This document shows, one piece after another, positions 8 through 15,207 of a DNA stretch of 64,000 nt (positions within the stretch are counted from its first letter, which is position 1; each line of letters starts with the position of its first letter). The notes under the pieces were generated by a model. That model ran no database searches. It saw nothing but the letters and a program-made list of their open reading frames with translations, and was not told the DNA's origin. The position numbers and the translations under genes are program-made. Source of the DNA: Candidatus Multivorans sp. (GTDB lineage Bacteria; Acidobacteriota; Thermoanaerobaculia; Multivoradales; Multivoraceae); assembly GCA_965247095.1 (NCBI GenBank), contig OZ251997.1, positions 3,040,001 through 3,104,000 of the forward strand. Reading direction: 5' to 3'.

Positions 8-727
8 TTGCACCAGGTGCCCGTGGTGCAGAAGCAGATCATTGAGAGCGGCTGGCGACACCTGCGTCCCGTGATCGTGGCAACCCAGATGCTGGAGTCG
101 ATGATCGAGCATCCGCGGCCGACCCGAGCCGAATCGTCGGACGTGGCGAACGCCGTGTTCGACGGCGCCGACGCGATGATGCTCTCCGGCGAGAGCGCCG
201 CCGGCCGCTATCCCCTGGAAGCGGTGCAGACGATGCACCGGATCATCGCCGAGTCGGAGCGTTACCAGCTCTCGAAGCACACCTCCCAGCCGGTTGGATT
301 CCACACGATGGAAGTCGGCCCCTACGACATCGAACCGCCGAACCGGTTGGGCGGGCTGGAGATCCCGGAGACGATCTCGGCCGCGGCCATCCTGTCGGCT
401 CGGCATCTGAGCGCGCAGGGAATCGTGGTCCTCAGCCAGGGCGGTTTCACGGCCCGTCAGGTCGGCTGCCGCCGGCCGTCGACGCCGGTGCTGGCCTTCA
501 CCCGCGATCCGCGGACGATGCGCGAACTCCAGCTCGTGTGGGGCGTTCAAGGTGTGCGGATGGACCAGGAGGTCTACCACCACGACGAGGTCGTCACGAT
601 GGTGGACCGGCAACTCCTCGCCGGCAGCCTGGCCCTGCCCGGCGACACGATCGTGCTGCTGATGGGTGACCCGATCCAGGATCGTCCGCCGACGAACCTG
701 GTGCGGATTCACCGCGTCCGGGCGTAG
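8..727 (+). CDS. pyk: Pyruvate kinase, C-terminal part (5' end outside window)
   Basis: PK motifs [40 protein letters not shown] and C-domain LVWGV. Confidence 0.95.
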
Positions 728-744
728 CGCTACGATCACGCGCC

Positions 745-1923
745 ATGACCGACAACGATCTTCAAATCTCAATCGAGCGGGATTACCCCTACCTCCGCGA
801 CCCGGTGCGCCGGATCTGCGAGCAGTTTCCGGGCGAGTACTGGCGGCGTCTAGATGCCGCGGCCGAGTATCCGACCGAGTTCGTGCAGGCGCTGACCGAA
901 CACGAGTACCTCGGCTGCCTGATTCCCGAGGAGTACGGCGGGTCCGGTCTGCCGCTGCGCGCCGCGTCCGTCGTCCTGGAGACGATCCACTCCTCCGGCT
1001 GCAACGCGGCCGCGTGCCACGCCCAGATGTACACGATGGGCACGATGCTCCGCCACGGCAGCGACGAGCAGAAGCAGGAGTACCTGCCGAAGATCGCCAG
1101 CGGGGAACTGCGGCTGCAGGCGTTCGGCGTCACCGAGCCGGTAACCGGTTCCGACACGACCCAGTTGCGGACCACCGCGGTCCGCGACGGCGACACCTAC
1201 GTCGTCAACGGCCAGAAGATCTGGACCAGCCGCGCGCTCCATTCCGACCTGATGGTCCTGCTCGCCCGCACCACGCCGGCGGACCAGGTCGAGAAGCGGT
1301 CGCGCGGCCTGTCCGTGTTCCTGGTCGATCTACGCGAGGCGCGCGGCAACGGTCTCGAGATCCAACCGATCGAGACGATGATCAACCACGGCACCACCCA
1401 GGTCTTCTTCGACAACTTGCGCATCCCGGTCAGCAGCCGGATCGGCGACGAGGGGCACGGTTTCAAGTACATCCTGAGCGGCATGAACGCGGAGCGCATC
1501 CTGCTCGCCTCCGAGGCGATCGGCGACGCCCGCTACTTCATTCGCCGCGCCGTGGAGTACGCGAACGAGCGCGAGGTCTTCGGCCGGCCGATCGGCCAGA
1601 ACCAGGGCATCCAATTCCCGATCGCCCGTGCCCACGCCGAGACCGACGCCGCCGAAATGATCGTCCGCAAGGCCGCCGCCCTCTACGACGCCGGCCGCGA
1701 ATGCGGCGCCGAAGCGAACAGCGCCAAGCTCCTCGCCTCCGAAGCCGCCTGGAACGCCGGCGACACCTGCTTCCAGACCTTCGGCGGCTTCGCCTTCGCC
1801 ACCGAGTACGACATCGAACGCAAGTGGCGCGAATGCCGCCTGTTCCAGACCGCCCCGATCTCGACCAACCTTGTCCTCACGTACCTCGCCCAGCACGTGC
1901 TGGGCCTGCCGCGGAGCTACTGA
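745..1923 (+). CDS. Acyl-CoA dehydrogenase family protein
   Basis: IPEEYGGSG, FGVTEPVTGSD, NGQKIWTS, REVFGRPIGQNQ, QTFGGF; 392 aa. Confidence 0.93.
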   Translation: MTDNDLQISIERDYPYLRDPVRRICEQFPGEYWRRLDAAAEYPTEFVQALTEHEYLGCLIPEEYGGSGLPLRAASVVLETIHSSGCNAAACHAQMYTMGTMLRHGSDEQKQEYLPKIASGELRLQAFGVTEPVTGSDTTQLRTTAVRDGDTYVVNGQKIWTSRALHSDLMVLLARTTPADQVEKRSRGLSVFLVDLREARGNGLEIQPIETMINHGTTQVFFDNLRIPVSSRIGDEGHGFKYILSGMNAERILLASEAIGDARYFIRRAVEYANEREVFGRPIGQNQGIQFPIARAHAETDAAEMIVRKAAALYDAGRECGAEANSAKLLASEAAWNAGDTCFQTFGGFAFATEYDIERKWRECRLFQTAPISTNLVLTYLAQHVLGLPRSY

Positions 1924-2000
1924 GCCGGGCTCGACTGCGGACCGTCGGCGGCGCGGGGCCGTCGGCTGGCGTGGCGGCGTCGAATGCACCCGCCTTCTCC

Positions 2001-2230
2001 GGGTCCGAAGGGGTAAGGTCCCAGCGGCCGCGCCATCCGTGCGCCCGATGACGGGCGCACGGACTGGTTCACGGATGGCGCGGACCGCGCCACCCGGGTT
2101 CGCACTTATCGGATGAATGGGAGGTGGGTGCTCGCTGCGGTCGGCTGCGCTCCGGTTGGTCGTCGGTTTCTGGAGGGGCCTGGGCCGTCGCTTGCCGACA
2201 GCCTCGCTGGGACCTCACCCCTTCGGACCC
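2001..2230. repeat. Intergenic element bounded by 26-bp inverted repeats with nested hairpins (MITE/REP-like or structured RNA)
   Basis: GGGTCCGAAGGGGTAAGGTCCCAGCG (2001-2026) vs CGCTGGGACCTCACCCCTTCGGACCC (2205-2230), 25/26 complementary; internal TCCGTGCGCCCG-ATGA-CGGGCGCACGGA hairpin. Confidence 0.65.
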
Positions 2231-2303
2231 TGCGCAGGCTGGAGGGCGTCGGGTAGCGAGAAGGCCCCGGTCCGGCCGGAGGTATGGCTAGTAGCGGCCC
2301 TAG

Positions 2304-4246
2304 CCCGAAGTTCTGCGGTCCGATGCGTGAAATTCCCTGTAATGACGGGGCAAACTTGGGATTTGGGAGTGTTGTCTACTGGGTACGGTTGGTCAAGGTC
2401 GGAGGTTGAGGAGGCTGAACGCCTTGGCCTGAAGGGGTGTGGGTGTGGCCAGGACGTCCACGGCGGCGTTTCCCTGGCCCTGCATTCGGACGCGATTTCG
2501 GGTCAGTGTGGAGAGGTCGTCGAGCAGTGTCTGGAAGCTGTGGACGGGTAGTCCTTCCGGTGTGCGCCTGCGGCTCGCCTTGGCGCGGGCTGCCTGGGAC
2601 CGTCGAGCCGGCTGGACGGGCGAGGAGCGTTCGTCCCTTGGGTCGTCGTCGTCGAAGAGCAAGGGAGCGAGAAGGCGTCGCATGTGCCACTCGACGTAGT
2701 AGGCGAGCATGCACAGAAAGACGTGGGCTCGCACTCTGTTGGCGAGGCGATGGTGGACGGGGCGGACCTTGAGGTCGACGCTCTTGTAGCTGCGGAAGGC
2801 GCGCTCGACGCGGCTGAGGCTCTTGTAGGCCCGGACCGCCTCCGGCGCCGGGAGGTCGGCCTCGGCCACGTTGGTGCGGATGACGTAGAAGCCGTCGAGG
2901 GCGGCCTCTTCGGCGATCTGCGCCAGCTTGCGGGAGTAGCGGAAGCCGTCTTCTTCGATCTCGGTGTCGAAGTGCTTGCCGACCTTGTGGGCGCGCAGGG
3001 CGCGGTCGGCGCGGGCGGCGATCTTGTCCTTGCCCCGCAGGGAGCGCTGTGAGCGCCTCGTCGCTTCGGCGACGGCCTCAAGCTTGCGCTCGGTGGCGTC
3101 GAGAAGCTCCTCGCGCTTGCGGCGCCGCCTGGCTGCCAGGAGCGGGTTCCGGCACACGATCAGCCGCTCTCCGGGGTACAGCTCGGGGGCGCTCACTTCG
3201 GCCATGTCCCGTTCGTCGAAGATCGACAGTTGCAGGTGGCCTTGCTGCACCAGCGTGCGGATCGCCGGCGCGCGCAGGGCGGTGATCCAGGACAGACCGC
3301 CGGGTTCGAGGTCCTCGCGGATGCGGGCGCTGGTGAGCAGGCCCCGATCGCCGACCATGATCATGCGGTCGAGCGAGAAGCGCTCCTTGAGCTTCTGCAC
3401 CTGGGCGCTCAACGTGCCGGGATCGGCGGTGTTGCCTTCGAAGACCTCGACCGCGACCGGGCATCCGTCCCGGTCGCAGAGCAGCGCGAAGACGATCTGG
3501 GGCTTGCCCGGCTTGCCGTCCTTGGAGTATCCGCGCCGGGCGAGGGCGCACTTCGCGCCCTCGAAGTAGACCGAAGTCACGTCGCACAAGACGAGGGAAC
3601 CGTCTTCGAGGTGCTGTTTGGCCAACCGTCGCTCGATGCGTTCCTGCCGCTTGAGCAGCCAGTCCATGGCGCTGTAGAGCTCGTCGGCGCCCGCCTCCTC
3701 GATTCCGACTTCCTCGCCGAGGGAGTGGGGCGAGGTCTCGCTTGAGAGTCCGCGGGCGGTGGCGAGCTTGGAGCCTGGTTCCAGGATGCGCGCGACGATC
3801 ATGGCGACCGCGAGCGTCCGCTCCCGTGAGGGTCGGCGGTCGAGCAGTGTCTGGAGGCCGCATTGTCGCGCGGCGCCGAGCGTGGCGGCGACATGACCGT
3901 GCGGCTTGGAACGCAGGATCTCGAAGGCCGAGTCCAGGGAAGGCAGTGCGACGCCGCCCTTGAGGAGAGTGCGAAGCCCCTCGACGAGATGATCGGGCCA
4001 CTTGGAGAGGTTCGCGAGCGTCCGTTTGCAGACTCTTCCGTCCTGTCGGTACGACTCGCGCAGGAGCACGGCGGGTGGCGAGTTGCGGTTGGGTACGCGT
4101 TCGATGTACATGGCTTCTATCTTAGCTCTACCATGTCTCCATGTCTACCACGATTGACTGTACGACATGGGTACATGGTGCGGCCCGGAAACCGTAAAGC
4201 CCTAGGCGCGGCAACGATCCGCGACGCTCAGGCCTCAGAACTTCGG
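2304..4246 (-). mobile_element. IS1634-family insertion sequence (ends approximate)
   Basis: Imperfect terminal IRs CCGAAGTTCTG (from 2305) and CAGAACTTCGG (4236-4246) around the transposase. Confidence 0.75.
2393..4111 (-). CDS. IS1634-family DDE transposase
   Basis: N-terminus MYIERVPNRNSPPAVLLRESYR; DDE segments LCDVTSVYFEG, MVGDRGLL, YKSLSRVERAFR; 572 aa, intact. Confidence 0.9.
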   Translation of the reverse strand: MYIERVPNRNSPPAVLLRESYRQDGRVCKRTLANLSKWPDHLVEGLRTLLKGGVALPSLDSAFEILRSKPHGHVAATLGAARQCGLQTLLDRRPSRERTLAVAMIVARILEPGSKLATARGLSSETSPHSLGEEVGIEEAGADELYSAMDWLLKRQERIERRLAKQHLEDGSLVLCDVTSVYFEGAKCALARRGYSKDGKPGKPQIVFALLCDRDGCPVAVEVFEGNTADPGTLSAQVQKLKERFSLDRMIMVGDRGLLTSARIREDLEPGGLSWITALRAPAIRTLVQQGHLQLSIFDERDMAEVSAPELYPGERLIVCRNPLLAARRRRKREELLDATERKLEAVAEATRRSQRSLRGKDKIAARADRALRAHKVGKHFDTEIEEDGFRYSRKLAQIAEEAALDGFYVIRTNVAEADLPAPEAVRAYKSLSRVERAFRSYKSVDLKVRPVHHRLANRVRAHVFLCMLAYYVEWHMRRLLAPLLFDDDDPRDERSSPVQPARRSQAARAKASRRRTPEGLPVHSFQTLLDDLSTLTRNRVRMQGQGNAAVDVLATPTPLQAKAFSLLNLRP

Positions 4247-4428
4247 CCTAAGGGACGTAAGCGCTGGGCTGGTCCTTTGGTTGCTGACGAGCTGGGTGGG
4301 GAACGGCCGATTGGGTGGAGGCATGGCTCGGAAACTGAGCCACCCAACGCTCGGAAAGTGATCCACCCTCGGCCCTGACACCGGTAGCTTGGTCTTGTTC
4401 AGTAGACCAACGCGATCGGAGGAAGGAC

Positions 4429-5870
4429 TTGCTGAGGATGGATCAGGTTCATGTTATTCGGCACCAGGTGCTGGTGGAGGGTCGGAGCCAGCGCTCGGTG
4501 GCTCGGGAGCACGGTGTGAGCCGCAACACGGTGCGCAAGTACCTGGATCAGAGCGAGCCGCGGCGGGTGGAGAGCAGGCCGCGGCGGCGGCTGGTGACGG
4601 AGCGTGTGGCTCCTCGTCTGGAGGAGTTGCTGAGGACGTGGTCTCGCCGGACGACGGCGAAGCAGCGTCTGACGGCGACGCGTCTGCATCGCCAGTTGCT
4701 GGAGGATGGCTACGAGGTCGGGATCACGACGATTCGCAGCTACGTTCGGGAGTGGAAGCGTCAGCGCCAGGAGACGTTCATTCCGCTGGTGCACCGTGCC
4801 GGCGAGTGCGGCCAGGTGGACTTCTTCGAGGTGACGGTGGAGGAGGACGGTGTGGCGCACCGGGTGTGGAAGTTCCTGCTGCACCTGCCGTACTCAGGCC
4901 GTTCGTTCGTGTGGCTGTACGACCGCTGCGACCAGGTGGCGTTCCTCGACGGCCACGTGCGGGCGTTCGCGCACTTCGGCGGCGTGCCGCTGCGTCTGGT
5001 CTACGACAATCTGAGTGCGGCGGTGCGTCGGCGGGTGGGCGGCGAGCGTCAGTTGACGGCTCGATTCCAAGCGCTGGTGAGCCACTACCTGTTCGAGCCT
5101 TGCTTCGCCCGCCCCGGCGAGGGGCACGACAAGGGCAGCGTGGAGTCGCGCGGCAAGGGAATCCGTCTGGCGCACATGAGTCCGGTGCCTCAAGGCCGCA
5201 CCCTGGAGGAGATCGCACGGGCGTGCTGGCTTCGGTCGACGCGGCACACAGTCAGCGCGCCCGGTGGCAGGAGGAGCAGGCAGCTCTGCGCGAGCTGCCG
5301 CCGACCGCGTTCGAGGCAAGGAAGCTCAGGATCGTGCGGGTGTCGCGCCAGGCGACGGTGCAGTTGGGCGGCGCGATCTACTCGGTTCCCTCGCGGTGGA
5401 AGAGCCTCCAGGTCCATGCCCGCGTCGGTACGGGCGACATCGTCTTCACCTGTCGCGACGCGGAGTACCGCTGCGCTCTGGTGCGGCCGGGACAGCGCCT
5501 GGTGCGCTACGCGCACTACTTCGAGGAGCTGTCCCGGAAGCCTCAGGCGGTGCGACAGGTGGCTCCGGAGCTGCTCGCGGAGCTTGGCCCGGCCTATCGC
5601 AAGCTATGGAGAATGCTGGAGTTGCGGCACGGCGCGCTGGAGACGGCGCGGCTCTTCGCCAAGCTGTTGAGCGTGGTCACAGACCACGGCAGCGAGGAGG
5701 TAGCCGCCGCACTCGAGGAGGCCCTGACCGCCGGTCGCTTCGACCTTCTGGGACTCGCCCTGCGGAGTCCCGCCTCCAAGATCGAGGTGCCGGAGCCGCT
5801 CCGCCGCCACGACATCGAGAGCGCTCGCGCCGCCGACTTCGACGTGCTGCTTCAGGAGGCGGCATCGTGA
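4429..5870 (+). pseudogene. istA: IstA transposase with a 1-bp frameshift near 5223 (real lesion or sequencing error)
   Basis: Frame 4429 gives HTH, GQVDF, VYDNL, DKGSVE up to EIAR; IstA-like sequence resumes in the 4389 frame (VLASVD...YSVPSRW...DFDVLL). Confidence 0.85.
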
Positions 5871-6619
5871 GCCGGGCGGCACGCAGAGCCGTCATCGCCG
5901 AGGGCCTCAAGATGCTCAAGATGCCTTCCGTGCTGCGCGACTACGAGCAGCGGGCGCGTCAGGCCCAGGACGCACAGTGGGACTACGAGGACTACCTGTG
6001 GCAACTGCTCGAGACCGAGATTCGGGACCGTGAGGCCCGCACCGTCGAGCGCCGGCTGCGCGCGGCCCGCTTCCCCGACCACAAGACCCTCGAGCAGATC
6101 GACTTCCAGGCGCTACAGGGAGTGTCCAAACCGAAGCTGCGCGAGCTGGCCTCCTGCGACTACATCGACCGCGGCGACGACGTCGTCCTCGTCGGACCCA
6201 TCGGCACCGGCAAGACGCATCTCGCGATCGCACTCGGCATCGAGGCCGCGAAGCGCCGCCGCCGGGTCTGGTTCCGCAAGGCCTCCGACCTCGTCCGCGA
6301 CCTGATCGAAGCCCGCGATCAGCGGGAGTTGGGGCGCCTGCAGCAGTGGCTACAGCGGGTGGATCTACTGATCTGCGACGAGCTCGGCTTCGTGCCATTC
6401 GACCGCGCCGGCGGCGAGTTGCTCTTCAACGTCTTCGCCGACCGTTACGAGCGCCGCTCGACCATCGTCACCTCCAACCTCGCCTTCTCCGAATGGGTCC
6501 GCGTATTCGGCGACGAAAAGCTCACCACGGCTCTGCTCGACCGCCTCTCCCACCACGCCCACATCCTCGCCACCAAGGGCTCCTCCTATCGGACTCGGCT
6601 GCGGAGAAGCCCTTCGTGA
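5867..6619 (+). CDS. istB: IstB AAA+ ATPase helper
   Basis: GTG overlaps istA stop; Walker A GPIGTGKTHLA, Walker B LLICDELG, TSNL, ALLDRL. Confidence 0.93.
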   Translation: MSRAARRAVIAEGLKMLKMPSVLRDYEQRARQAQDAQWDYEDYLWQLLETEIRDREARTVERRLRAARFPDHKTLEQIDFQALQGVSKPKLRELASCDYIDRGDDVVLVGPIGTGKTHLAIALGIEAAKRRRRVWFRKASDLVRDLIEARDQRELGRLQQWLQRVDLLICDELGFVPFDRAGGELLFNVFADRYERRSTIVTSNLAFSEWVRVFGDEKLTTALLDRLSHHAHILATKGSSYRTRLRRSPS

Positions 6620-7162
6620 ATCCGGATCGCACGACGCGCAACCGGACCGCCGCGGCGCCGCCGCTGAGAGCACCGCAACGGCCGCCGGCTGCGGAAGCTG
6701 CCGGCGCCGCGGAAAACGGCAGACCGTTTCCCGCACCGCCTTGGAAAACCGGCAGACCGGTTTCCCACAGCTACCGCAGCCGCTACGGCTACTGACTCAA
6801 GGGGACCGACGAGAGAAGACTCGCGTACACTCAACACGGCCGACGTGGCTCACTTTCCAAACGGTGGGTGGCTCACTTTCCGAGCGTTGCCAACAATTGG
6901 GAGCCAACGAGCCGTTCGTGAGGCCTCGAAAAGGCACCCCACCGTAGGTCTTGGGTCACGTGAGTGGCCGTATGTCCGAGAGTCGAACCTCCTCCAACTT
7001 CTTGTCTGGATCATACTCTCTTTCCGCGACGCGGAGAATGATCCTCTTGATCGTCTCTGTGAGAAACTGGGTTTCGCTGCTCGTGAGTTCCCAACGTACT
7101 CCTGCCGCCTTCCGGGCGTAGGTGCCACCCGCCTTCGACAACGACATCGGATGGTTTTCAGT

Positions 7163-8438
7163 CAGTGCTGTCCCACAAACTTCAGGCGAGCGCAAGTTGC
7201 GTTTGCGAGTTGGCCGTGTCCGGCGGTCCGTGAGTGGATTGGAAGAGCCCCAGGAGCGGTCTTCGCGCGAACAGGTTGAGTTGCAGGAGGCGCAGGATTT
7301 CGCTCATGGTCCAGGACATCTTGTTGGCGAACTTCAGGTAGGCGAGCAGGAGATGCACGCACATCGCGATCCAGATCTGGGTCATGACGGCATTGCGCGA
7401 AGTGCCGACGAAGCTCTTGATGCGCAGGTTCTGCTTGATCCACTTGAAGAAGGTCTCGATCTGCCAACGCTGCTTGTAGATGTTCGCGATGGTCTTCGGG
7501 ACGAGCTTGAAGTTGTTGGTCAGGAACGCGTAGAACTTCTTCGTGTCGGGGTCGCGATAGCCGACTCGACGCAGCGGAATCGGACACCGAGTGCGGCCTC
7601 TGACGCTGGTCAACTCGATGGTCTGGTCCGACGTCACGCCCGATCCAGGCGCGAACGACCGCCGCTCTCGAACCGCGTACTTGATCTTGCGCTTCAGCCG
7701 AGTGACCAGGAAAACCCCTTGTGCATCAAGGGATTTCAGCCACTCGAAGTCGAGGTACAGCCGGTCCGCAGCGACGATGCTTCCCTTCGGCAGACGAAGG
7801 GACCGCGCCACCTCAACGTCCGACCCCTTGCCGTCCGTGACTTGCAGGAACGCCGGCAGAAAGCCCTCGTGGTCCAGCCCCACGTGGAGCTTCAACGCCC
7901 CCTTCGTCTTGCGGTACTGCGCCCACGGAAACAGCTCCAGGCACAGGTCTACGTACGTGGCATCGAGCGAGAACAGCTTGTTGCGGAACCGGAACCCGTG
8001 CCCAGGCGCCGTCTTCCGGCATCGAGCCAGCAAACGACCGAACAACGCCTCGTAGAGACCGGAGGGCTGCTTCTCGTTCACCCGAGCCAGCGACGTTCGG
8101 GCCACCCGCCGAGCGCCGAGGTGATAGAGCTTCTCAGCCTGCGCGTCGAGATTCGACACGATGTCGCGAAGGCTGCATCGTCCCGAGAGCTGCGCCGTCG
8201 CCATCGCCACGAACTGGCTCCACCGGCTCATCGAACGCAGCTTGCGTCCCCTGTGGTGCCGCACGGCCTCCCGCTCGAACTCATGTCTCGACACCAACTT
8301 GAGGAACTGTCCGAGTACGGTACCATTGTGCGCCATGGGTCTGGATCTCCTTGCCGGCATTGGCGTTGTTGTGAAAACCAATCATACGACAAGGCTCGGT
8401 CCAGACCCATATTCATCCATGTTTGTGGGACAGCACTG
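7163..8438 (-). mobile_element. IS4-family insertion sequence, perfect 18-bp IRs, 9-bp target duplication
   Basis: CAGTGCTGTCCCACAAAC (7163-7180) and its reverse complement (8421-8438); GTTTTCAGT at 7154-7162 and 8439-8447. Confidence 0.93.
7182..8336 (-). CDS. IS4-family transposase (DUF4372-like N-terminus)
   Basis: SLDAT, ADRLY and YREK-type signature YKQRWQIETFFKWIKQNL; C-terminal QLAL resembles a clamp-binding motif. Confidence 0.9.
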   Translation of the reverse strand: MAHNGTVLGQFLKLVSRHEFEREAVRHHRGRKLRSMSRWSQFVAMATAQLSGRCSLRDIVSNLDAQAEKLYHLGARRVARTSLARVNEKQPSGLYEALFGRLLARCRKTAPGHGFRFRNKLFSLDATYVDLCLELFPWAQYRKTKGALKLHVGLDHEGFLPAFLQVTDGKGSDVEVARSLRLPKGSIVAADRLYLDFEWLKSLDAQGVFLVTRLKRKIKYAVRERRSFAPGSGVTSDQTIELTSVRGRTRCPIPLRRVGYRDPDTKKFYAFLTNNFKLVPKTIANIYKQRWQIETFFKWIKQNLRIKSFVGTSRNAVMTQIWIAMCVHLLLAYLKFANKMSWTMSEILRLLQLNLFARRPLLGLFQSTHGPPDTANSQTQLALA

Positions 8439-8721
8439 GTTTTCAGTACTTTGCGAGCGATCCCATACTTGTTCACGGCGGCTTGTTGAAGATTGCCGTG
8501 TTGCGTCAACTCTCCGGGTCGACCATGTACTCAAGGAACGTGGCGCCGAAGTACGCCATGCTGGTCAGAGGCTCCTTGCCCTTGCGATAGCCGAGAAATC
8601 GTTCGAGGACCTCGCACGCGAATGGGCTGTGCAGGATCGAAGTCACGATCGGAAGCGCGGACGTGCCGACAACTCCTCGGGTCGCGGTTCCCGTCAGATA
8701 GCCGGGCGGGATAAGCGGCCG

Positions 8722-10650
8722 TTAGTGCGTCGCGTCGCGCATGAAGCGCGGCATGATCGAGTGGTCGCCGCGGATCATCTCCGACATCTCGGCGAGATCG
8801 TCAGCGAAAGTACTGCGGGTGACCGTCAGGTAGCGCCAAGCCGAGAACCATCCGCTCTGTTCCCGAATGCTCGCGGTCGACTGGGATGCCGACCACTCGG
8901 CGGCATCGGTGTTGCCCACGGCCCACTGAGCCAGAGCCAGACATTGGTGGTAGTTCGCATTTGGCTCTTTCCTGGGCTCGGAATGGTCAAGTTCGACTAC
9001 TCTGGCGAATGGCTCAGAAGAAATCTCTTGTTGCTCAGCCCAGCAGGCCATACCGTAGTTGAACGCGGACTGGATTTGCATGTCTTCCAACCTGGCCTCT
9101 TGGCACCGGATGACGGCCAGTGCTTCTGAGAAGCGCCGTAGTGCCAGAAGAGTCAAGACAAGACCTTGCCGGGCCATGCTCAGTTCCTCTTGCTTGAGGT
9201 CTGACTCTCTCAACAGGGACTGAAGAACCGTGGCGGCGACGTTGGCTTCCTCACGGCTTCGCGTCAAGTTGTTGGCCAAGGAGATCTTCCCGACGTTCGG
9301 TAGTTGCTCCATTGCGGGCGAGCCTGGTACGAAATTCAGGTGTTCTGGGAGTAGCATCAAGAGCGCACGCCTCAGATCACCGTATGAAGCGGAATGAACG
9401 CTAAGAACAGCGAGAGCGTCCTGGCTAGCCCCCTCACGGTCGTTGAACTGTGCTCGGCGGAGTTCGCCTCGTGCAAGGTGGACAGCTGCCTCGCTGTAGC
9501 CAACGTCGATGGACCGGTCGAACAAGTCAATGGAGTTCTCTGGGCCGTCGTAGTCCAGCTTCCCAAGCCGGAACAGCACCTCTCCATCGGTGGAATGATG
9601 TGTTTGGATTCGGTTCAGTCGATTCTTTAGTGTCTCTAGCTGCTCTGAACCACCAGGAAGGCGGAAGACTGCTCGTCGCCGTTCCAGCCACTCAATGTAG
9701 TCGAGTGCCCCGGCGCGGTCTTCGGGATTCGCACGGGCGAGCTCTGACACTAGAGTCCGGTACTCGCGAGCGAGGCGGCTCCGCGGGCGGTCCTTCGTGA
9801 AAACCGTCTGGTTTAGTAGAGATAGACTGTTGTATCGATGGATTGCGAGGGGTTCTCGGCGGAACCCGAGGCTTCCCTGGAAGGACGCGATGATGTTCTC
9901 GAGGATCGCAGCCTCGTCGTCGAGGTCTGGTACGTTCGACAGAACGAAATGAAGGTCGATCGCCTTGTGGCGGGGTCCACTCTCCTCCGCACGAATGTCG
10001 CTAACGACCTTCTTGAGACCCCTTAGGTTCTGTTGATTGGGGAAGAACAGGAGTACGACGGCGTCCGGGAGCTGTCGCGTACAAATGCCGCCGACGTCTG
10101 TGTAGCCTGTGCGGGAATCGATAAGGACGTAGTCGGGGTTCAGGTCGGCTCGCCACTGTTCCTTCAGGTCCTCGAACAGTAGGTACCCGTCGAAGTGCTC
10201 GTAGAGAAGGCCCCAGTCGATCCTGTTTAGTCTATTAGCGTAGCTCTGGTCTTGGGATCCGGACGGCATGATCCAGAGGCTACCTTGCGGGCTTGAAGGA
10301 CCACCATGGCCCTCGAGATCCAGGGGGTCTTGGTCAGTCGAGAGCGGCTCAGCATCCTGCTGTGCGGGCTGTGTTGCCTTCCGCTTCCAGCAGTACTCGG
10401 GCGCTTCGAAACGGAACTCTTTGGCGTCCGGTGCCTGATTAGTTGATAGGTACGATTCGACAAAGTCGACCATCCCGGGTGTCGACCCGGCCTTGGGGCC
10501 GAGACTGAAAGTGTCGAGGCCCGGTGCCTCTAGATCAAAGTCGACGGCGAGAACTCGCGAGCCCCTGTTGGCTAGCTCGACGGCGACGTTGACAAGGGCC
10601 ATCGTGCGGCCCACTCCTCCTTTGAAGGAGTAGAAGGTCGTGATGTACAT
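8722..10650 (-). CDS. KGGVGR-motif ParA/MinD-like ATPase with C-terminal helical (TPR-like) domain
   Basis: TFYSFKGGVGRTMAL (Arg in place of Walker A Lys), VDFDLEAPGL, YVLIDSRTG; helical repeats in residues ~310-640. Confidence 0.8.
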   Translation of the reverse strand: MYITTFYSFKGGVGRTMALVNVAVELANRGSRVLAVDFDLEAPGLDTFSLGPKAGSTPGMVDFVESYLSTNQAPDAKEFRFEAPEYCWKRKATQPAQQDAEPLSTDQDPLDLEGHGGPSSPQGSLWIMPSGSQDQSYANRLNRIDWGLLYEHFDGYLLFEDLKEQWRADLNPDYVLIDSRTGYTDVGGICTRQLPDAVVLLFFPNQQNLRGLKKVVSDIRAEESGPRHKAIDLHFVLSNVPDLDDEAAILENIIASFQGSLGFRREPLAIHRYNSLSLLNQTVFTKDRPRSRLAREYRTLVSELARANPEDRAGALDYIEWLERRRAVFRLPGGSEQLETLKNRLNRIQTHHSTDGEVLFRLGKLDYDGPENSIDLFDRSIDVGYSEAAVHLARGELRRAQFNDREGASQDALAVLSVHSASYGDLRRALLMLLPEHLNFVPGSPAMEQLPNVGKISLANNLTRSREEANVAATVLQSLLRESDLKQEELSMARQGLVLTLLALRRFSEALAVIRCQEARLEDMQIQSAFNYGMACWAEQQEISSEPFARVVELDHSEPRKEPNANYHQCLALAQWAVGNTDAAEWSASQSTASIREQSGWFSAWRYLTVTRSTFADDLAEMSEMIRGDHSIMPRFMRDATH

Positions 10651-10656
10651 CTGCCG

Positions 10657-11226
10657 CTAGGCAGCCACAGGCCGCAGCAGGAATCCGGCCTGCCCGGCCT
10701 GGAGAGCATCCGGCTGCTTGAGGCGACGGAATCTGGGCGGACCGGTGGGACCTGAGGCCTCTGAGGATGGGCGCGCGCTTAGTGCCGCCACCAGCTTCCC
10801 GAGCATGGCCCAGCCTAGGTCGGTGCCGAGCAGCCGCAGGTAGTGGTCATTGGCGCGGTTTTGGGCGACGGCGCCGGTTTCCCAGCGCTTGATGGTGGCT
10901 TCGCCGAGCCCCGTGATCTGCGCGAATGCTGTGCGGCTCAGCTTCCGACGTTCGCGGATCGTTCGGATCTGCCAAGGAGTCAACAGGCCGTGGTAGCGGT
11001 AGATAGCCTCGGTCTCGATTCGCGCTCCTACGTGGTCGACGAACTGGAGGTCGCAGTCGGAACATGCCCTGACGGGCATCGTGATGGCGATCTCGCGGTC
11101 GCCGAACTCGACCGTGTCGTCTTCGATCGACGTCGTCGCGGGCCCTTCGCACCTAGGGCAGATCGCCGTGGTGCGGCTTGGGTCGTCCGCCGCCACTTCG
11201 TCCTTGGGCCTTCTGTAGTCGATCAT
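10657..11226 (-). CDS. MqsA-like antitoxin (Zn ribbon + Cro/XRE HTH) with C-terminal extension
   Basis: CPRC...CSDC; LLTPWQIRTIRERRKLSRTAFAQITGLGEATIKRWETG; GGAGG RBS. Confidence 0.85.
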   Translation of the reverse strand: MIDYRRPKDEVAADDPSRTTAICPRCEGPATTSIEDDTVEFGDREIAITMPVRACSDCDLQFVDHVGARIETEAIYRYHGLLTPWQIRTIRERRKLSRTAFAQITGLGEATIKRWETGAVAQNRANDHYLRLLGTDLGWAMLGKLVAALSARPSSEASGPTGPPRFRRLKQPDALQAGQAGFLLRPVAA

Positions 11227-11274
11227 CGTGCTGTCCTCCGGTTTAGCGTTTCGTTCGCGTTGTCAGCGGGCAAA

Positions 11275-11637
11275 CTAGTAGTGGAAGCTGCGGCCGTGGA
11301 CCAATCGTCGATTCCTGCTCAGCTCCAGCTTCACATACAGTGTCTGTGGGTTTCCCTCTAGTTCCACCTTGAGCACGTAACCGACTCGGGCGGGCGGTTC
11401 ATCGAGCGGAACGATCTCTACAGGGTGACCTTCCTCCAGCTTCTCGGCCACGAAGTCCCACGCCGAATGGCGCGTGAAGGTAGGGAAAAAGCCGCCTCTT
11501 GGATCGCGGACTGTCGTTGGTCGCCACTCCGTAGGTCGCTTTCGAGTCCATGTGTCATCTCGAGTCCTCTCGGAACGGGCCAACTTGGCCAGCAGCCTCC
11601 GGGTTTCTCGGTCGATCTGGTCTCCAGGCACGGCCAT
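11275..11637 (-). CDS. Putative MqsR-like (RelE-fold) toxin
   Basis: 120 aa, upstream of the MqsA-like gene (toxin-first order as in mqsRA); C-terminal LYVKL...SFHY pattern. Confidence 0.55.
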   Translation of the reverse strand: MAVPGDQIDRETRRLLAKLARSERTRDDTWTRKRPTEWRPTTVRDPRGGFFPTFTRHSAWDFVAEKLEEGHPVEIVPLDEPPARVGYVLKVELEGNPQTLYVKLELSRNRRLVHGRSFHY

Positions 11638-11663
11638 CGGTTGCCCTACGGCCAGCGCATGGA

Positions 11664-11730
11664 GGATCGTATGATCCCTATGGAGAACTTGTCAAGCTTG
11701 TCGGGGTCGTGGCAGGGGATCATGTGATCC
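11664..11730 (-). promoter_or_regulatory. Sigma70-type promoter TTGACA-N18-TACGAT with two GGATC-N4-GATCC palindromes
   Basis: -35 at 11690-11695, -10 at 11666-11671 (minus strand); palindromes at 11664-11677 and 11717-11730. Confidence 0.65.
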
Positions 11731-11763
11731 GATCCTCGCGTCGGCTTAGTGGAAGGCGGGATG

Positions 11764-11779
11764 ACACACACACACACAC
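11764..11779. repeat. (AC)8 dinucleotide microsatellite
   Basis: ACACACACACACACAC read directly. Confidence 0.9.
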
Positions 11780-11842
11780 CACGGGTTGCCGATGCAGCAC
11801 GCCGGCGTCTCGTACCGGTGGTTCCCCCAGGACTTGCGCGCC

Positions 11843-12694
11843 CTACGAGGCCCGGTCGCGAGCCGCCGCTAGCGCGCGCTTGCCGTAGACCTTGCCGACG
11901 TGGACGCGGTAGTCGCCGGAGGCGAAGATGTCGCCGATCGGGTCTTCGGTGTCGAGGCCGGCAGCGGCTGCTGCGATCGCTTCGTCGGAGAGATCGCTGC
12001 CGACGAGGGAGGACACGTCGACCGCGGTCGGCACGGCGCCGACTCCGCCGACGACGAGGCCGGCTGCGGTGCAGCGGCCGTGATGGACGGTGACGGAAGC
12101 CGCGGCGCCGACGACGGCGTAGCCGGAGGCCGGGTGCTCGAACTTGAGGTAGGCGGCGCCGGTGCCGGCGCCCAGGGCGGGGACGTCGACGTGGGTCAGG
12201 ATCTCGTCCTCACCGACGTCGGTCATGAGCAGGTCCTGGAAGAAGTCGCCGGCGGCGACGGAGCGGGTGCCGGACGGGGACTGCAGGTGGACCTGAGCGC
12301 CGAGCAGGACGAGCACCGGCGGCAGGTCGGAGCCGGGGTCGGCGTGGGCGATGTTGCCGCCGATCGTGCCGCGGTTGCGGACCTGGGCGTCGCCGATGTG
12401 GCCAGCCGCTTCGGCGAGGACCGGGCAACGGGCGGCGAGCAGGTCGGAGGCCGCGATCTCGGCGTGGGTGGTCAGGGCGCCGATCCGGACCGAGCCGTTC
12501 GCGGCGGAGATCCCCTTCAGTTCGTCGAGGCGGCCGATGTCGATGACCACGGGCGGCTGCGCGAGGCGCAGCTTCATCATCGGGATCAGGCTGTGGCCGC
12601 CGGCCATCAGCTTGGCGTCTTCGTGCTCCTGCAGCAGGCCGAGTGCTTCATCGACCGATCCGGCGCGGCGGTAATCGAATTGGGCTGGGTACAT
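11843..12694 (-). CDS. coxM: Xanthine dehydrogenase/CODH-family FAD subunit (CoxM-like)
   Basis: MYPAQFDY, AGGHSLIPMMKLR, QVRNRGTIGGN, ADPGSD. Confidence 0.9.
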   Translation of the reverse strand: MYPAQFDYRRAGSVDEALGLLQEHEDAKLMAGGHSLIPMMKLRLAQPPVVIDIGRLDELKGISAANGSVRIGALTTHAEIAASDLLAARCPVLAEAAGHIGDAQVRNRGTIGGNIAHADPGSDLPPVLVLLGAQVHLQSPSGTRSVAAGDFFQDLLMTDVGEDEILTHVDVPALGAGTGAAYLKFEHPASGYAVVGAAASVTVHHGRCTAAGLVVGGVGAVPTAVDVSSLVGSDLSDEAIAAAAAGLDTEDPIGDIFASGDYRVHVGKVYGKRALAAARDRAS

Positions 12695-12852
12695 ATCGGT
12701 GCTCCTGATTCGGCAGCTTCGGTGGTTCGGCTGCGGAGTCTAGAAGACTGCGCGACAGAACGATACGAAGTGAGGTCGGTCGTGCAGCATTCTAGTGAGG
12801 TGGGGATGGGGCCAAACTCCGAGTCAGCGAGGCGTTTGGCGGCGCTAGGCGG

Positions 12853-15207
12853 TTATCCGGCGTTCACGGCCCGCCACACCTTCTCGGGCGTGAGCGGCAT
12901 GTCGATGTGAGTGACGCCGAACGGCGCCAGCGCGTCGACGACGGCGTTGACCACGGCCGGGGGCGAGGCGATGGCGCCGGCTTCGCCGACGCCCTTGACC
13001 CCCAGCGGATTGTGCGGGCAGGGCGTGGTCGTGCGGTCGAGTTCGAACGGGATCAGGTTGTGGATCTTGGGCAGCGCGTAGTCCATCAACGAGCCCGTGA
13101 CGAGTTGTCCGCTCTCGTCGTAGACCGCGTTCTCCCACAGCGCCTGCCCGATGCCCTGGGCCAAACCCCCGTGGAGCTGCCCGTCGACGATCATCGGGTT
13201 GATCACGTTGCCGACGTCGTCGACCGCGGCGTAGCGCAGCAGTTCGATGGCGCCGGTCTCCGTGTCGACCTCCACCACACAGATGTGGGTGCCGAACGGA
13301 TAGGTGAAGTTGGCGGGGTCGTAGAACGTGGTGGCGGAGAGGCCCGGTTCCAGGTCGTCGGGGTAGTTGTGCGCCAGGTACGCCTGGAGCGCCACGTCGC
13401 CGAGACCGAGCGCGCGGTCGGGCGAGCCGGCGACCCGGAAACTGCCGTCCTCGTACTCGAGGTCCTCGGCGGATGCTTCGAGCAGGTGGGCGGCGATCTT
13501 CTTGCCCTTCTCGATGATCTTGTCGACGCTCCCCGCGATCGCCGAGCCGCCGACGGCGGCGCTGCGGCTGCCGTAGGTGCCCATGCCGAACTGGACCAGG
13601 TCGGTGTCGCCGTGGATGACCTCGACCGCCTCCGGAGCGACGCCGAGCCGGTCGGCGACGATCTGGGAGAACGTCGTCTCGTGGCCCTGGCCGTGGGACG
13701 AGGAGCCGGTGTAGACGGTGACGGAACCGGTGGGGTGGACGCGCACGTCGGCGCTCTCCCACAGTCCGGCCTGAGCGCCGAGCGAGCCGACGACCGCCGA
13801 GGGCGCGAGGCCGCAGGCCTCGATGTAGGACGAGAAACCGATCCCTAGCTGCCGGCGGCCGTTGCCGTTGGCGCGGCGGGACGCCTGCTCGCGGCGCAGG
13901 TCGTCGTAGCCGACCATCTCGAGCGCGCGGTCCATCGCCGGCGCGTAGTTGCCCGAGTCGTACGCGAGCGCGACCTGGGTCTGGTACGGGAAGGCGTCCG
14001 GCGGCACGAAGTTCCGCTTGCGAACTTCGACCGGCCCCAGACCAGTCGCGTCGCCGGCGAGGTGCATCAGCCGCTCGACGACGAAGGTCGCTTCCGGGCG
14101 TCCGGCGCCGCGGTAGGCGTCGACGGGCGCGGTGTGGGTGAAGACGCCGGTGACGTGGCAGTGGATCGCCGGGATGTCGTACTGGCCGGACATCAGCGTG
14201 CCGTAGAGACAGGTCGGCACGGAGGGCGCGAAGGTCGAGAGGTAGGCGCCCATGGCGGCCTTGGTGTCGACCCGCAGGCCGATGATGCGGCCGTCGCCGT
14301 CGAACGCCATTGCGCAGTGGGTCGAGTGGTCGCGGCCGTGGGCGTCGGTGAGGTTCGTCTCGGTGCGCGTCGCGGCCCACTTCACCGGGCGGTCGAGCTT
14401 CATCGAGCACAGGCCCACGATCGCCTCGTCGGCGTAGTGGTGGATCTTGCTGCCGAAGCCGCCGCCGACCTCGGGCGCGACGATCCGCACCTTGTGCTCG
14501 GGCATGCCGAGCGACGCGAGCGTCATCAGCAGGCGATGGACGTGCGGATTCTGGGTCGTCATGTGGATCGTCATGTGGCCGGTCGACGAGTCGTAGGAGG
14601 CGAGCACCGCGCGTGCCTCGATCGCGTGAGGGATGAGCCGGTTGTTGCGGAGATCGAGCTCCACCGTCTGGGCGGCCTGCGCGAAGGCGGCGTCGACCGC
14701 ATCCTTGTCGCCGATCTCCCAGTCGAAGGCGACGTTGCCGGGCGCGTCCTCGTGGACGGTGGGCGCTCCGTCCTCGAGCGCGGCGACGACATCGGCCACC
14801 GCGTCGAGCGGTTCATAGTCGACCGCGACCCGGTCGGCGGCGTCGCGGGCGATGTAGCGGTCCTCAGCCACGACCACGGCCACCGCGTCGCCGACGTGGC
14901 GGACGGTGTCGACCGCGATCATCGGATGGGCGGGCGTCTTGAGGCCGGGCAGGAGCCAGCCCACGGGGACCACGCCGGGAATGCCGGCCGCCGCGACGTC
15001 GCGGGCCGTGAGCACGGCGAGGACGCAGGGATATGCCTCCGCGGCGGAGGTGTCGATGCCGCGGATCCGGGCGTGGGCGTAGGGGCTGCGCACCATCGCG
15101 GCGTGCGTCATGCCTTCGACCTTCAGGTCGTCGGTGTACTTGCCGCGGCCGGTGATGAGGGCCGGGTCCTCCCGGCGCTTGATCGAGGTGCCGAGTACGC
15201 GCGCCAT
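12853..15207 (-). CDS. coxL: Molybdopterin large subunit, CoxL form II-like
   Basis: [18 protein letters not shown], active-site loop [22 protein letters not shown]. Confidence 0.88.

Follow-up and report, generated by a model that had tools for sequence, protein, structure and literature searches.

Among the described systems, the closest to the locus analyzed here are the "TA-ParA" ternary systems, which Li, Burroughs and Aravind defined computationally in a preprint of 22 October 2026 (bioRxiv 10.64898/2026.10.19.760177). In the text passages of that preprint, a TA-ParA system consists of a type II toxin-antitoxin (TA) pair and a ParA protein fused to a C-terminal sensor, in most cases tetratricopeptide repeats (TPRs), and one subtype combines BECR RNase toxins with helix-turn-helix (HTH) antitoxins, "such as MqsR-MqsA". 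The "ConB2" ParA proteins are marked there by an arginine that replaces the Walker A lysine and by a PG motif after sensor-1 (DxD), and the Lys-to-Arg ParA clade is assigned to conflict systems. The authors of the preprint propose that the ParA switch reorganizes the toxin-antitoxin interaction once the sensor detects an invader, and hold this architecture to be distinct from the SecB-type toxin-antitoxin-chaperone (TAC) systems. Here, we analyze a locus of this kind in a 64,000-nucleotide stretch of the genome of Candidatus Multivorans sp. (contig OZ251997.1, positions 3,040,001 to 3,104,000 of the forward strand), hereafter the window, to which all coordinates refer unless another locus is named. 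The locus, T-A-P, is a conserved, mobile three-gene operon that encodes an MqsR/MqsA-like pair and a ParA-like ATPase with TPR repeats:

11275-11637, minus strand: T, intact open reading frame (ORF) of 120 residues, putative toxin
10657-11226, minus strand: A, intact ORF of 189 residues, MqsA-family antitoxin
8722-10650, minus strand: P, intact ORF of 642 residues, ParA-like ATPase

With the BECR subtype of TA-ParA, as it appears in the text passages of the preprint, this operon shares an MqsA-type HTH antitoxin, a ConB2 ParA, C-terminal TPRs, a conserved ternary organization and the same predicted sensor-switch role; both ConB2 marks are found in P, namely, the arginine of KGGVGR and the sequence DFDLEAPG. 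The differences are the antitoxin tail motif, the core/tail cassette exchange and the operator palindromes described below, all of which are absent from those passages (supplements and figures aside). The T family may be among the examples of the preprint, whose supplements and figures may list it or deal with antitoxin tails. A preliminary description of this DNA had claimed that no system of this composition was known. This claim does not hold because the preprint, already in its text passages, defines TA-ParA with ParA-TPR proteins and MqsR-MqsA-type pairs and so covers the composition of T-A-P, which is a further member of a class known so far from computation. No experimental study of such a system was found in the literature, where the preprint was the only description found.

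The ORF coordinates agree with the layout given in the preliminary description, that is, three intact, co-oriented genes with gaps of 48 bp between T and A and 6 bp between A and P. A P-centred search, with one genome taken per species, yielded 73 loci. In 72 of these, a relative of A is encoded upstream on the same strand, a relative of T is present in 70, and T, A and P are contiguous in 68. Judging by the record titles, these loci span Acidobacteria, Terriglobia, Bryobacterales, Vicinamibacterales, Binatia, Spirochaetia and Latescibacterota, with further representatives in Gamma-, Alpha- and Deltaproteobacteria, Thermodesulfobacteriota, Entotheonella and a Sphingomonas. The non-contiguous loci include two with insertions (L027 and L039), two without T (L060 and L066), and one that contains only a fragment of P (L072). 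L027 has ~1.3 kb between T and A together with an extra T fragment, and its genome (G447) carries two T-like pieces 3.4 kb apart; in L039, ~1.4 kb separates A from P. When the flanking ORFs were clustered, the largest other neighbour clusters covered at most 15 loci and represented antisense artefacts or lineage synteny. In most loci, the stop codon of A is separated from the start codon of P by 3-6 bp or overlaps it by 4, a spacing from which P is predicted to be translationally coupled to A; this coupling forms part of the explanation favoured below.

Searches that started from T gave a consistent picture. A metagenome scan identified 21 T-centred loci. Of these, 12 include P (9 whole and 3 truncated by a contig end), 5 offer enough space for P without encoding it (L088, L098, and L083-L085, the last three being a single sequence), and 4 are too short, so that P is present in 12 of the 17 informative loci; the T-A pairs without P amount to just 3 distinct sequences in this sample. 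Among the 401 genomes searched from the phylum of the window, T was detected in 8, with A and P adjoining it in all 8. Within the same genus, 4 of the 8 other sampled genomes carry the trio, at differing chromosomal positions and with T 47-69% identical to that of the window, which indicates independent acquisitions. In the phylum of genome G448, the T profile matched 1 of 301 genomes, namely, G448 itself. The co-occurrence of the three genes, for which the preliminary description had suggested a gene-neighbourhood survey, is thus borne out from both directions and, as judged by these neighbourhoods, T-A-P is a real conserved module.

The antitoxin consists of two parts of different character:

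10825-11226, minus strand: core of A (residues 1-134), with a CxxC...CxxC zinc-binding domain (C23, C26, C55, C58) followed by the HTH
10657-10824, minus strand: tail of A (residues 135-189 and stop), a variable linker followed by a conserved C-terminal motif

A passes the cutoff of the NCBIfam model of the MqsA family, TIGR03830 (71 bits; cutoff 61.8); in Pfam, HTH_31 was matched, and MqsA_antitoxin stayed below the cutoff (16.4 bits vs 30). The A profile also matches the solved structure of E. coli MqsA (PDB 3gn5, chain residues 3-130, E 4.6e-5). In 34 aligned homologues of A, the cysteines C23, C26, C55 and C58 are invariant, and the RWE sequence and the HTH are conserved. Past the MqsA core, the tail of ~55 residues contains RF(R)xL and then F-x-L-R-x-A-A at the C-terminus, and in the same homologues, F166 is near-invariant whereas F182 and L184 are invariant. 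By these family, profile and motif matches, A belongs to the MqsA family of antitoxins and is extended by a tail of ~55 residues, in agreement with the "tailed MqsA-like antitoxin" of the preliminary description.

The presence of the tail goes with the presence of P. The F-x-L motif close to the end of A co-occurs with P in 77 loci, and the tail motif is likewise missing from all 5 loci in which P is absent despite sufficient space; in these, A is ~157 residues long and ends shortly past the HTH. The other mismatches between the motif and P consist of variant motifs (YQLRAA, FQIR and a terminal FVL), truncated genes or contig ends. This is the pattern predicted by the analogy drawn in the preliminary description, in which the third gene occupies the "chaperone slot" of a TAC-like operon. 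In L083 (2219-3873), a T-A pair that lacks both P and the tail motif is directly followed by an AbiEi_4/AbiEii type IV TA pair.

The tail and P also appear to move together. In a relative from the same genus, the same chromosomal site (L048) is 96.5% identical to the window at the DNA level over a stretch that runs from the CO-dehydrogenase flank, takes in the promoter and T, and extends into A as far as window position 10821, which corresponds to residue ~135 of A, that is, the end of the MqsA core. Past this breakpoint, the tail gives no alignment, and P is 69-75% identical. On this alignment, the tail and P have been exchanged as a cassette between the window and L048. In a second pair of loci (L079 and L051), the T genes are 4% apart and the A cores 1% apart, compared to 26-54% for P, with the identity dipping in the last ~56 nucleotides (nt) of A and falling steadily from ~100 nt into P. 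When segment distances were computed over 52 complete systems, the mean pairwise distance was 0.41 for T, 0.40 for the A core, 0.70 for the A tail, 0.31 for the ATPase half of P and 0.60 for its TPR half. The A tail and the TPR half of P are the fast-evolving parts of the operon.

P itself divides into two halves:

9706-10650, minus strand: N-terminal domain of P (residues ~1-315), ParA/MinD-like ATPase (NF047398 and Pfam; PDC-M28B at the domain level)
8722-9705, minus strand: C-terminal half of P (residues ~316-642 and stop), TPR-like helical repeats, fast-evolving

P passes the NCBIfam model NF047398 (AAA_KGGVGR, KGGVGR-motif variant AAA ATPase) with 169 bits against a cutoff of 90, and the Pfam families that it matches are of the ParA/MinD type. 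Its motifs are the Walker A sequence FYSFKGGVGRT, VDFDLEAPG and the Walker B sequence DYVLIDSRTG; given that Walker A reads KGGVGR, the classical P-loop lysine is replaced by arginine. The alignment of 35 full-length homologues shows little or no variation in FYSFKGGVGR(T/S), VDFDLEAPG and DYVLIDSRTG, with K10, G11-G14, D37, D39, P43 and G44 invariant in 35 of 35 and R15 retained in at least 90%. TPR families were matched in about half of these homologues (TPR_14 in 19, TPR_2 in 18 and TPR_12 in 17 of the 35), and positions 320-390 of the family profile match solved consensus TPR proteins with E 6e-14. The designation "KGGVGRT ATPase-TPR" in the preliminary description therefore stands for the ATPase through NF047398 and for the repeats through the homologues and the family profile, but not for the window copy taken alone, which gave no Pfam TPR match at E<=0.01. 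The P of the window also contains an insert of ~36 acidic and polar residues (~86-121; window 10290-10400) after the FEAPE segment, shared by 2 of the 34 other aligned homologues (L041 and L070). P is shortened in eleven species-level genomes, most of which share synteny: L059-L064 encode 284-358 residues, which comprise the ATPase domain only, and L048, L049, L054, L055 and L069 encode 409-456 residues, ending within the TPR region.

T belongs to a family with 69 close relatives and, at E<=1e-3, 491 cluster representatives at 50% identity; the conserved positions are W38, P40, A59-W60, P81, Y101, K103 and G115-R-S-F-H119 (near-invariant). An ESM Atlas model with a pTM of 0.82 is available for P0038, a homologue with 49% identity to T over the full length. 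One cluster among the structural neighbours of this model is 98% PF15723 MqsR_toxin (TM 0.67/0.76 over 101 residues), and a second is 26% MqsR (TM 0.73/0.76). For comparison at the profile level, 40 MqsR sequences were gathered starting from the E. coli K-12 mqsR gene. Aligned to this set with hhalign, the T family gave a weak match in which Y101, K103, S117, F118 and H119 of T are paired with Y81, K83, S94, F95 and K96 of MqsR; in the MqsR alignment, the first three of these positions are invariant and the last two near-invariant. With the single E. coli MqsR sequence, the hhalign probability was 0.4%. The Atlas fold of P0038 and the weak hhalign match are the basis on which T is predicted to be a BECR protein and is, in our judgement, quite probably a divergent MqsR-like toxin. 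Of the MqsR-like toxin of the preliminary description, the resemblance in predicted fold and weak profile similarity remains, but no family model matches T: the MqsR model PF15723 found neither T nor any of 131 family members at E<=1. A search with PF15723 in 61 related genomes also gave no match, but equally none was obtained in 14 control genomes, so this search is uninformative.

Upstream of T, a promoter candidate is bracketed by two palindromes:

11666-11695, minus strand: sigma-70-like promoter, -35 TTGACA at 11695-11690, 18-nt spacer, -10 TACGAT at 11671-11666
11717-11730, no strand assigned: upstream operator-like palindrome GGATCATGTGATCC, evaluated by pattern count vs shuffles
11664-11677, no strand assigned: second operator-like palindrome GGATCGTATGATCC, overlapping the -10 hexamer

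The TTGACA-18-TACGAT site, reported as a near-consensus promoter in the preliminary description, indeed matches the consensus at 10 of 12 positions and is the sole such site in the 3.7 kb from 8300 to 12000. By itself, however, the match is not significant because shuffled sequence yields 0.8 such sites on average compared to the 1 found. The candidate gains weight from its position relative to the T start codon, which lies ~29 nt downstream, and from the two copies of the 14-nt palindrome GGATCNNNTGATCC (GGATC-N3-TGATCC) on both sides of it. In the whole window, this palindrome pattern has 3 strand matches at 2 sites vs 0.05 expected, and none of 100 shuffles reached 3 matches. Palindromes of a similar kind, (G)ATCA-N2-4-TGAT(C), are found upstream of T in ~16 other loci from different lineages. 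The pair of palindromes around the promoter looks like the arrangement of an autoregulated TA operon.

Several described systems resemble T-A-P in part. With E. coli MqsR-MqsA, it shares the position of the toxin gene in front, an antitoxin with a zinc-binding CxxC pair at the N-terminus and an HTH at the C-terminus, palindromic operators in the promoter, and a small toxin with a conserved Y-x-K ... S-F-(K/H) C-terminus. However, T fails the MqsR family model, is ~22 residues longer than E. coli MqsR and shows only weak profile similarity, and A adds the 55-residue tail to an operon in which a third gene is conserved. The TAC systems (HigBA-SecB and MqsRAC) have the same three-gene layout and an antitoxin C-terminal extension that co-occurs with the third gene; in T-A-P, by contrast, the third gene encodes a ParA-like ATPase with TPRs and not a SecB-like chaperone, and the A tail is a short conserved C-terminal motif and not a tested chaperone-addiction segment. 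Filing the operon under TAC was rejected given that P matches ParA/MinD-type families only and not SecB. The MqsR:PanA pair, in the available sections of the NetFlax article (PMC10440598), includes an MqsA-type antitoxin with a zinc-binding domain and an HTH, and a C-terminal extension proposed to sense or regulate rather than to neutralize; that extension is a Panacea domain whereas A has a short tail, with the presumed sensor residing in a separate ParA-TPR protein.

The explanation that we favour, with somewhat better than even confidence, is a ternary TA-ParA module in which P would hold A via the tail, sense an invader and free T. By analogy with E. coli MqsA, T would be a divergent MqsR-like (BECR-fold) RNase that is inactive while bound by the zinc-binding domain of A, and the HTH of A would bind both palindromes around the promoter and keep the operon repressed. 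P would be made in step with A through translational coupling and would hold it by the conserved C-terminal tail, with either the TPR groove or the ATPase domain serving as the dock. The TPR half of P would sense an invader-derived signal, whereupon the ParA domain would shift its nucleotide or dimer state, releasing or exposing A; the freed T would then cut RNA, and the infected cell would be arrested or killed. We infer in this scheme the toxicity and RNase activity of T, all contacts between the proteins, the trigger and the role in defence. TPR grooves often bind C-terminal peptides. A more specific proposal, which we put forward tentatively and with slightly less than even confidence, is that the tail motif (RFRxL ... 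F-x-L-R-x-A-A) is a docking peptide for the ParA-TPR protein, such that the tail and P together would form an exchangeable "sensor cassette" recombined onto a self-sufficient MqsRA-like pair.

A number of observations weigh against these proposals. Searches of Pfam, NCBIfam, PADLOC and PHROGs yielded no match for T, searches with the 131 members of its family yielded nothing credible in Pfam or NCBIfam, and comparison of the T profile to the PDB sequences also yielded nothing credible, with no MqsR found. The hhalign match to the 40 MqsR sequences is a single, weak one (probability 4.4%, E 0.009, 18 columns), and the fold evidence comes from a database model of the homologue P0038 and not of T itself, such matches being leads. 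With an arginine in Walker A, P may bind ATP yet hydrolyze it poorly or not at all. With respect to the tail, the distance matrices of the operon segments are all highly correlated (0.60-0.88), and the partial correlation of the tail is greater with T (0.32) than with the two halves of P (0.14-0.15), the value for the A core being -0.01; these correlations do not locate the partner of the tail because they are confounded by shared descent. Furthermore, the eleven loci in which P is cut in or before the TPR region (284-456 residues) keep the tail motif, which argues against docking on the TPRs alone, unless these copies of P are in decay, as may be the case given that several of these loci also carry a damaged T or A.

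The genomic surroundings do not point strongly to defence either. PADLOC, applied to 117 of the 325 neighbour cluster representatives, gave scattered matches only (mad2 in 2, and one each of Type I methyltransferase, ZacB, SIR2, Type II methyltransferase and HEC-05), the neighbours of the operon in the window are IS elements (insertion sequences) and metabolic genes, and a scan of viral contigs found no relative of T. The defence-island context of the trio is weak.

Part of the evidence could also be accommodated by TAC-like addiction without sensing. P would then be a constitutive holdase or stabilizer of an unstable tailed A, comparable to SecB in TAC systems, and T would be freed when the synthesis of P or A stops; the island would be maintained post-segregationally or in connection with stress, and no dedicated invader sensor would be involved. 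Such a role would fit the co-occurrence of the antitoxin extension with the third gene, the tight coupling of A and P (3-6 bp or an overlap of 4 in most loci) and the placement of the module in a variable hotspot beside IS elements, and has a precedent in the toxin-antitoxin-chaperone systems, as presented in the available parts of two articles (PMC5105189, PMC6377645). We nevertheless consider it unlikely: the text passages of the preprint argue that the ParA architecture is distinct from TAC (bioRxiv 10.64898/2026.10.19.760177), P is not SecB-like and matches no chaperone family in Pfam or NCBIfam, and it combines a nucleotide switch with a repeat sensor, the C-terminal half evolving approximately twice as fast as the ATPase half, as sensors do. 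Under a partition-like alternative, which appears very unlikely, P would be a ParA-type ATPase and A a ParB/ParG-like adaptor whose basic flexible tail stimulates the ATPase at palindromic sites, with T adding addiction so that the unit maintains a mobile element. The tails of ParG and ParB activate their ParA partners, the N-terminal domain of P is ParA/MinD/ParF-like, A is a small, predicted site-specific DNA binder with a flexible tail containing Arg and Phe motifs, and the copies of P without TPRs keep the tail motif in the cognate A. However, unlike ParABS, T-A-P has no ParB-like conserved neighbour; the loci are all in chromosomal or contig contexts with unrelated neighbours and share no plasmid or integrative and conjugative element genes, and there are only two operator-type palindromes and no centromere-like array. 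Moreover, a TPR half of more than 300 residues has no role in partition, and the Lys-to-Arg clade to which P belongs is assigned in the text passages of the preprint to conflict systems and not to partition.

The two other alternatives concern the coherence of the trio. If T were not a toxin, the operon could be devoted to transcriptional regulation, with a small MqsR-shaped protein modulating A and with P engaged in unrelated signalling; the lack of any matching toxin model for T and its weak profile similarity to MqsR are compatible with this view. We give it little credence because the conserved Y101, K103 and S117-F118-H119 fall on conserved C-terminal positions of MqsR (in the sole, weak hhalign match), the toxin-first order with an MqsA-type partner is that of E. 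coli mqsRA, and T is missing or split in L027, L060, L061 and L066, the way in which toxin genes are often lost. In addition, T-A pairs are also found without P, in one case next to an AbiEi/AbiEii pair. That P is functionally independent of the T-A pair and adjoins it by chance is so improbable as to be almost negligible: the three genes are contiguous in 68 of the 73 P-centred loci across many phyla with otherwise unrelated flanks, the T-centred searches agree, and this linkage across loci refutes chance adjacency at the level of gene linkage.

The preliminary description had suggested PADLOC as a check that the system is unassigned. T has no match there, and P matches PDC-M28B (2e-30, 104 bits) at the domain level only, mainly in the ATPase domain (two stretches, the best at 4-69). 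PDC-M28B, from the PADLOC system PDC-M28 (A, B, C), is the same type of KGGVGR ATPase. Filing T-A-P under PDC-M28 was rejected given that the match of P is domain-level, T and A match neither PDC-M28A nor PDC-M28C, and the true set is located elsewhere: a complete PDC-M28 A/B/C set lies in the same genome (G000:C1, ~849.4-853.4 kb) between pglX and pglZ in a bacteriophage exclusion (BREX)-like locus, and its true PDC-M28B scores 178 bits compared to 104 for P. This nesting shows the KGGVGR ATPase clade in a defence setting. Within that region (L120, G000:C1:846000-856000), PglX (467-4081) and PglZ (7500-9872) enclose PDC-M28, with PDC-M28A within 3385-4503, PDC-M28B, a KGGVGR-type ParA-like ATPase of 445 residues, at 4503-5840, and PDC-M28C, AAA_16-like, at 5841-7361.

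To the left of the operon, there are three IS elements, in accord with the IS cluster noted in the preliminary description:

2393-4111: DDE_Tnp_1 transposase (IS element), identified with Pfam
4389-6619: IS21-type IstA-like gene and IstB, identified with Pfam
7152-8436, minus strand: IS element with a DDE_Tnp_1+DUF4372 transposase (ORF 7182-8381), identified with Pfam, flanking the operon

The right-hand neighbours are CO-dehydrogenase/xanthine-dehydrogenase-type genes. The GC profile agrees with the earlier impression, gained by eye, that the operon is more A/T-rich than its flanks: the GC content is 0.57-0.65 over 8500-11750, compared to 0.66-0.75 on the right (12000-15000) and 0.68-0.70 at 4500-6500. 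In five genomes of the same genus that lack the module, the flanks are 2.2, 3.1, 3.5, 6.3 and 27.8 kb apart compared to ~9.9 kb in the window, and given such widely differing spacing, the insertion site is a variable hotspot in the genus. In two public runs from a second study (X5 and X6), the operon is ~98% identical, with 56 differences and 4 gaps over 3186 nt, and the contigs join position 7151 to 8437, so that the adjacent IS element is absent, leaving an empty site for its 1285 nt with 11 letters that fit both sides. In the same runs, 12737-12853 of the window is replaced by 25 other letters. Stretches of ~70-150 nt within ~2030-2255 and ~12740-12850 match dozens of places per genome in five same-genus genomes at 75-97% identity and resemble dispersed repeats of the MITE (miniature inverted-repeat transposable element) or REP (repetitive extragenic palindromic) type.

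The same hotspot in L048 holds additional pieces. Its segment 7462-10887 encodes a 612-residue protein with RuvB_N, lid and RuvB_C behind an N-terminal extension of ~290 residues, a second A-like gene without the tail motif (9313-9858), an ORF in which an N-terminus resembling that of T is joined to an A-like zinc finger (10051-10437), and a fragment of P (10552-10887). The extra pieces related to T, A and P look like the remains of an older T-A-P cassette.

The T-A-P operon is a clean, compact and widely spread example of TA-ParA, to which it adds a testable feature, the antitoxin tail that travels with the ParA-TPR gene. It also contributes a toxin family, putative at this stage, of ~490 clusters at 50% identity that is matched by no model in the domain libraries. 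To our knowledge, the ways in which type II TA modules are triggered during infection are mostly unknown, and in this operon, the presumed trigger apparatus, a nucleotide switch combined with a fast-evolving repeat sensor, is encoded right beside the TA pair. If the tail indeed docks on P, it would provide the first physical connection to be defined in the TA-ParA class between a type II antitoxin and its dedicated sensor, and the grafting of the cassette would convert an ordinary TA module into one that is triggered by invaders.

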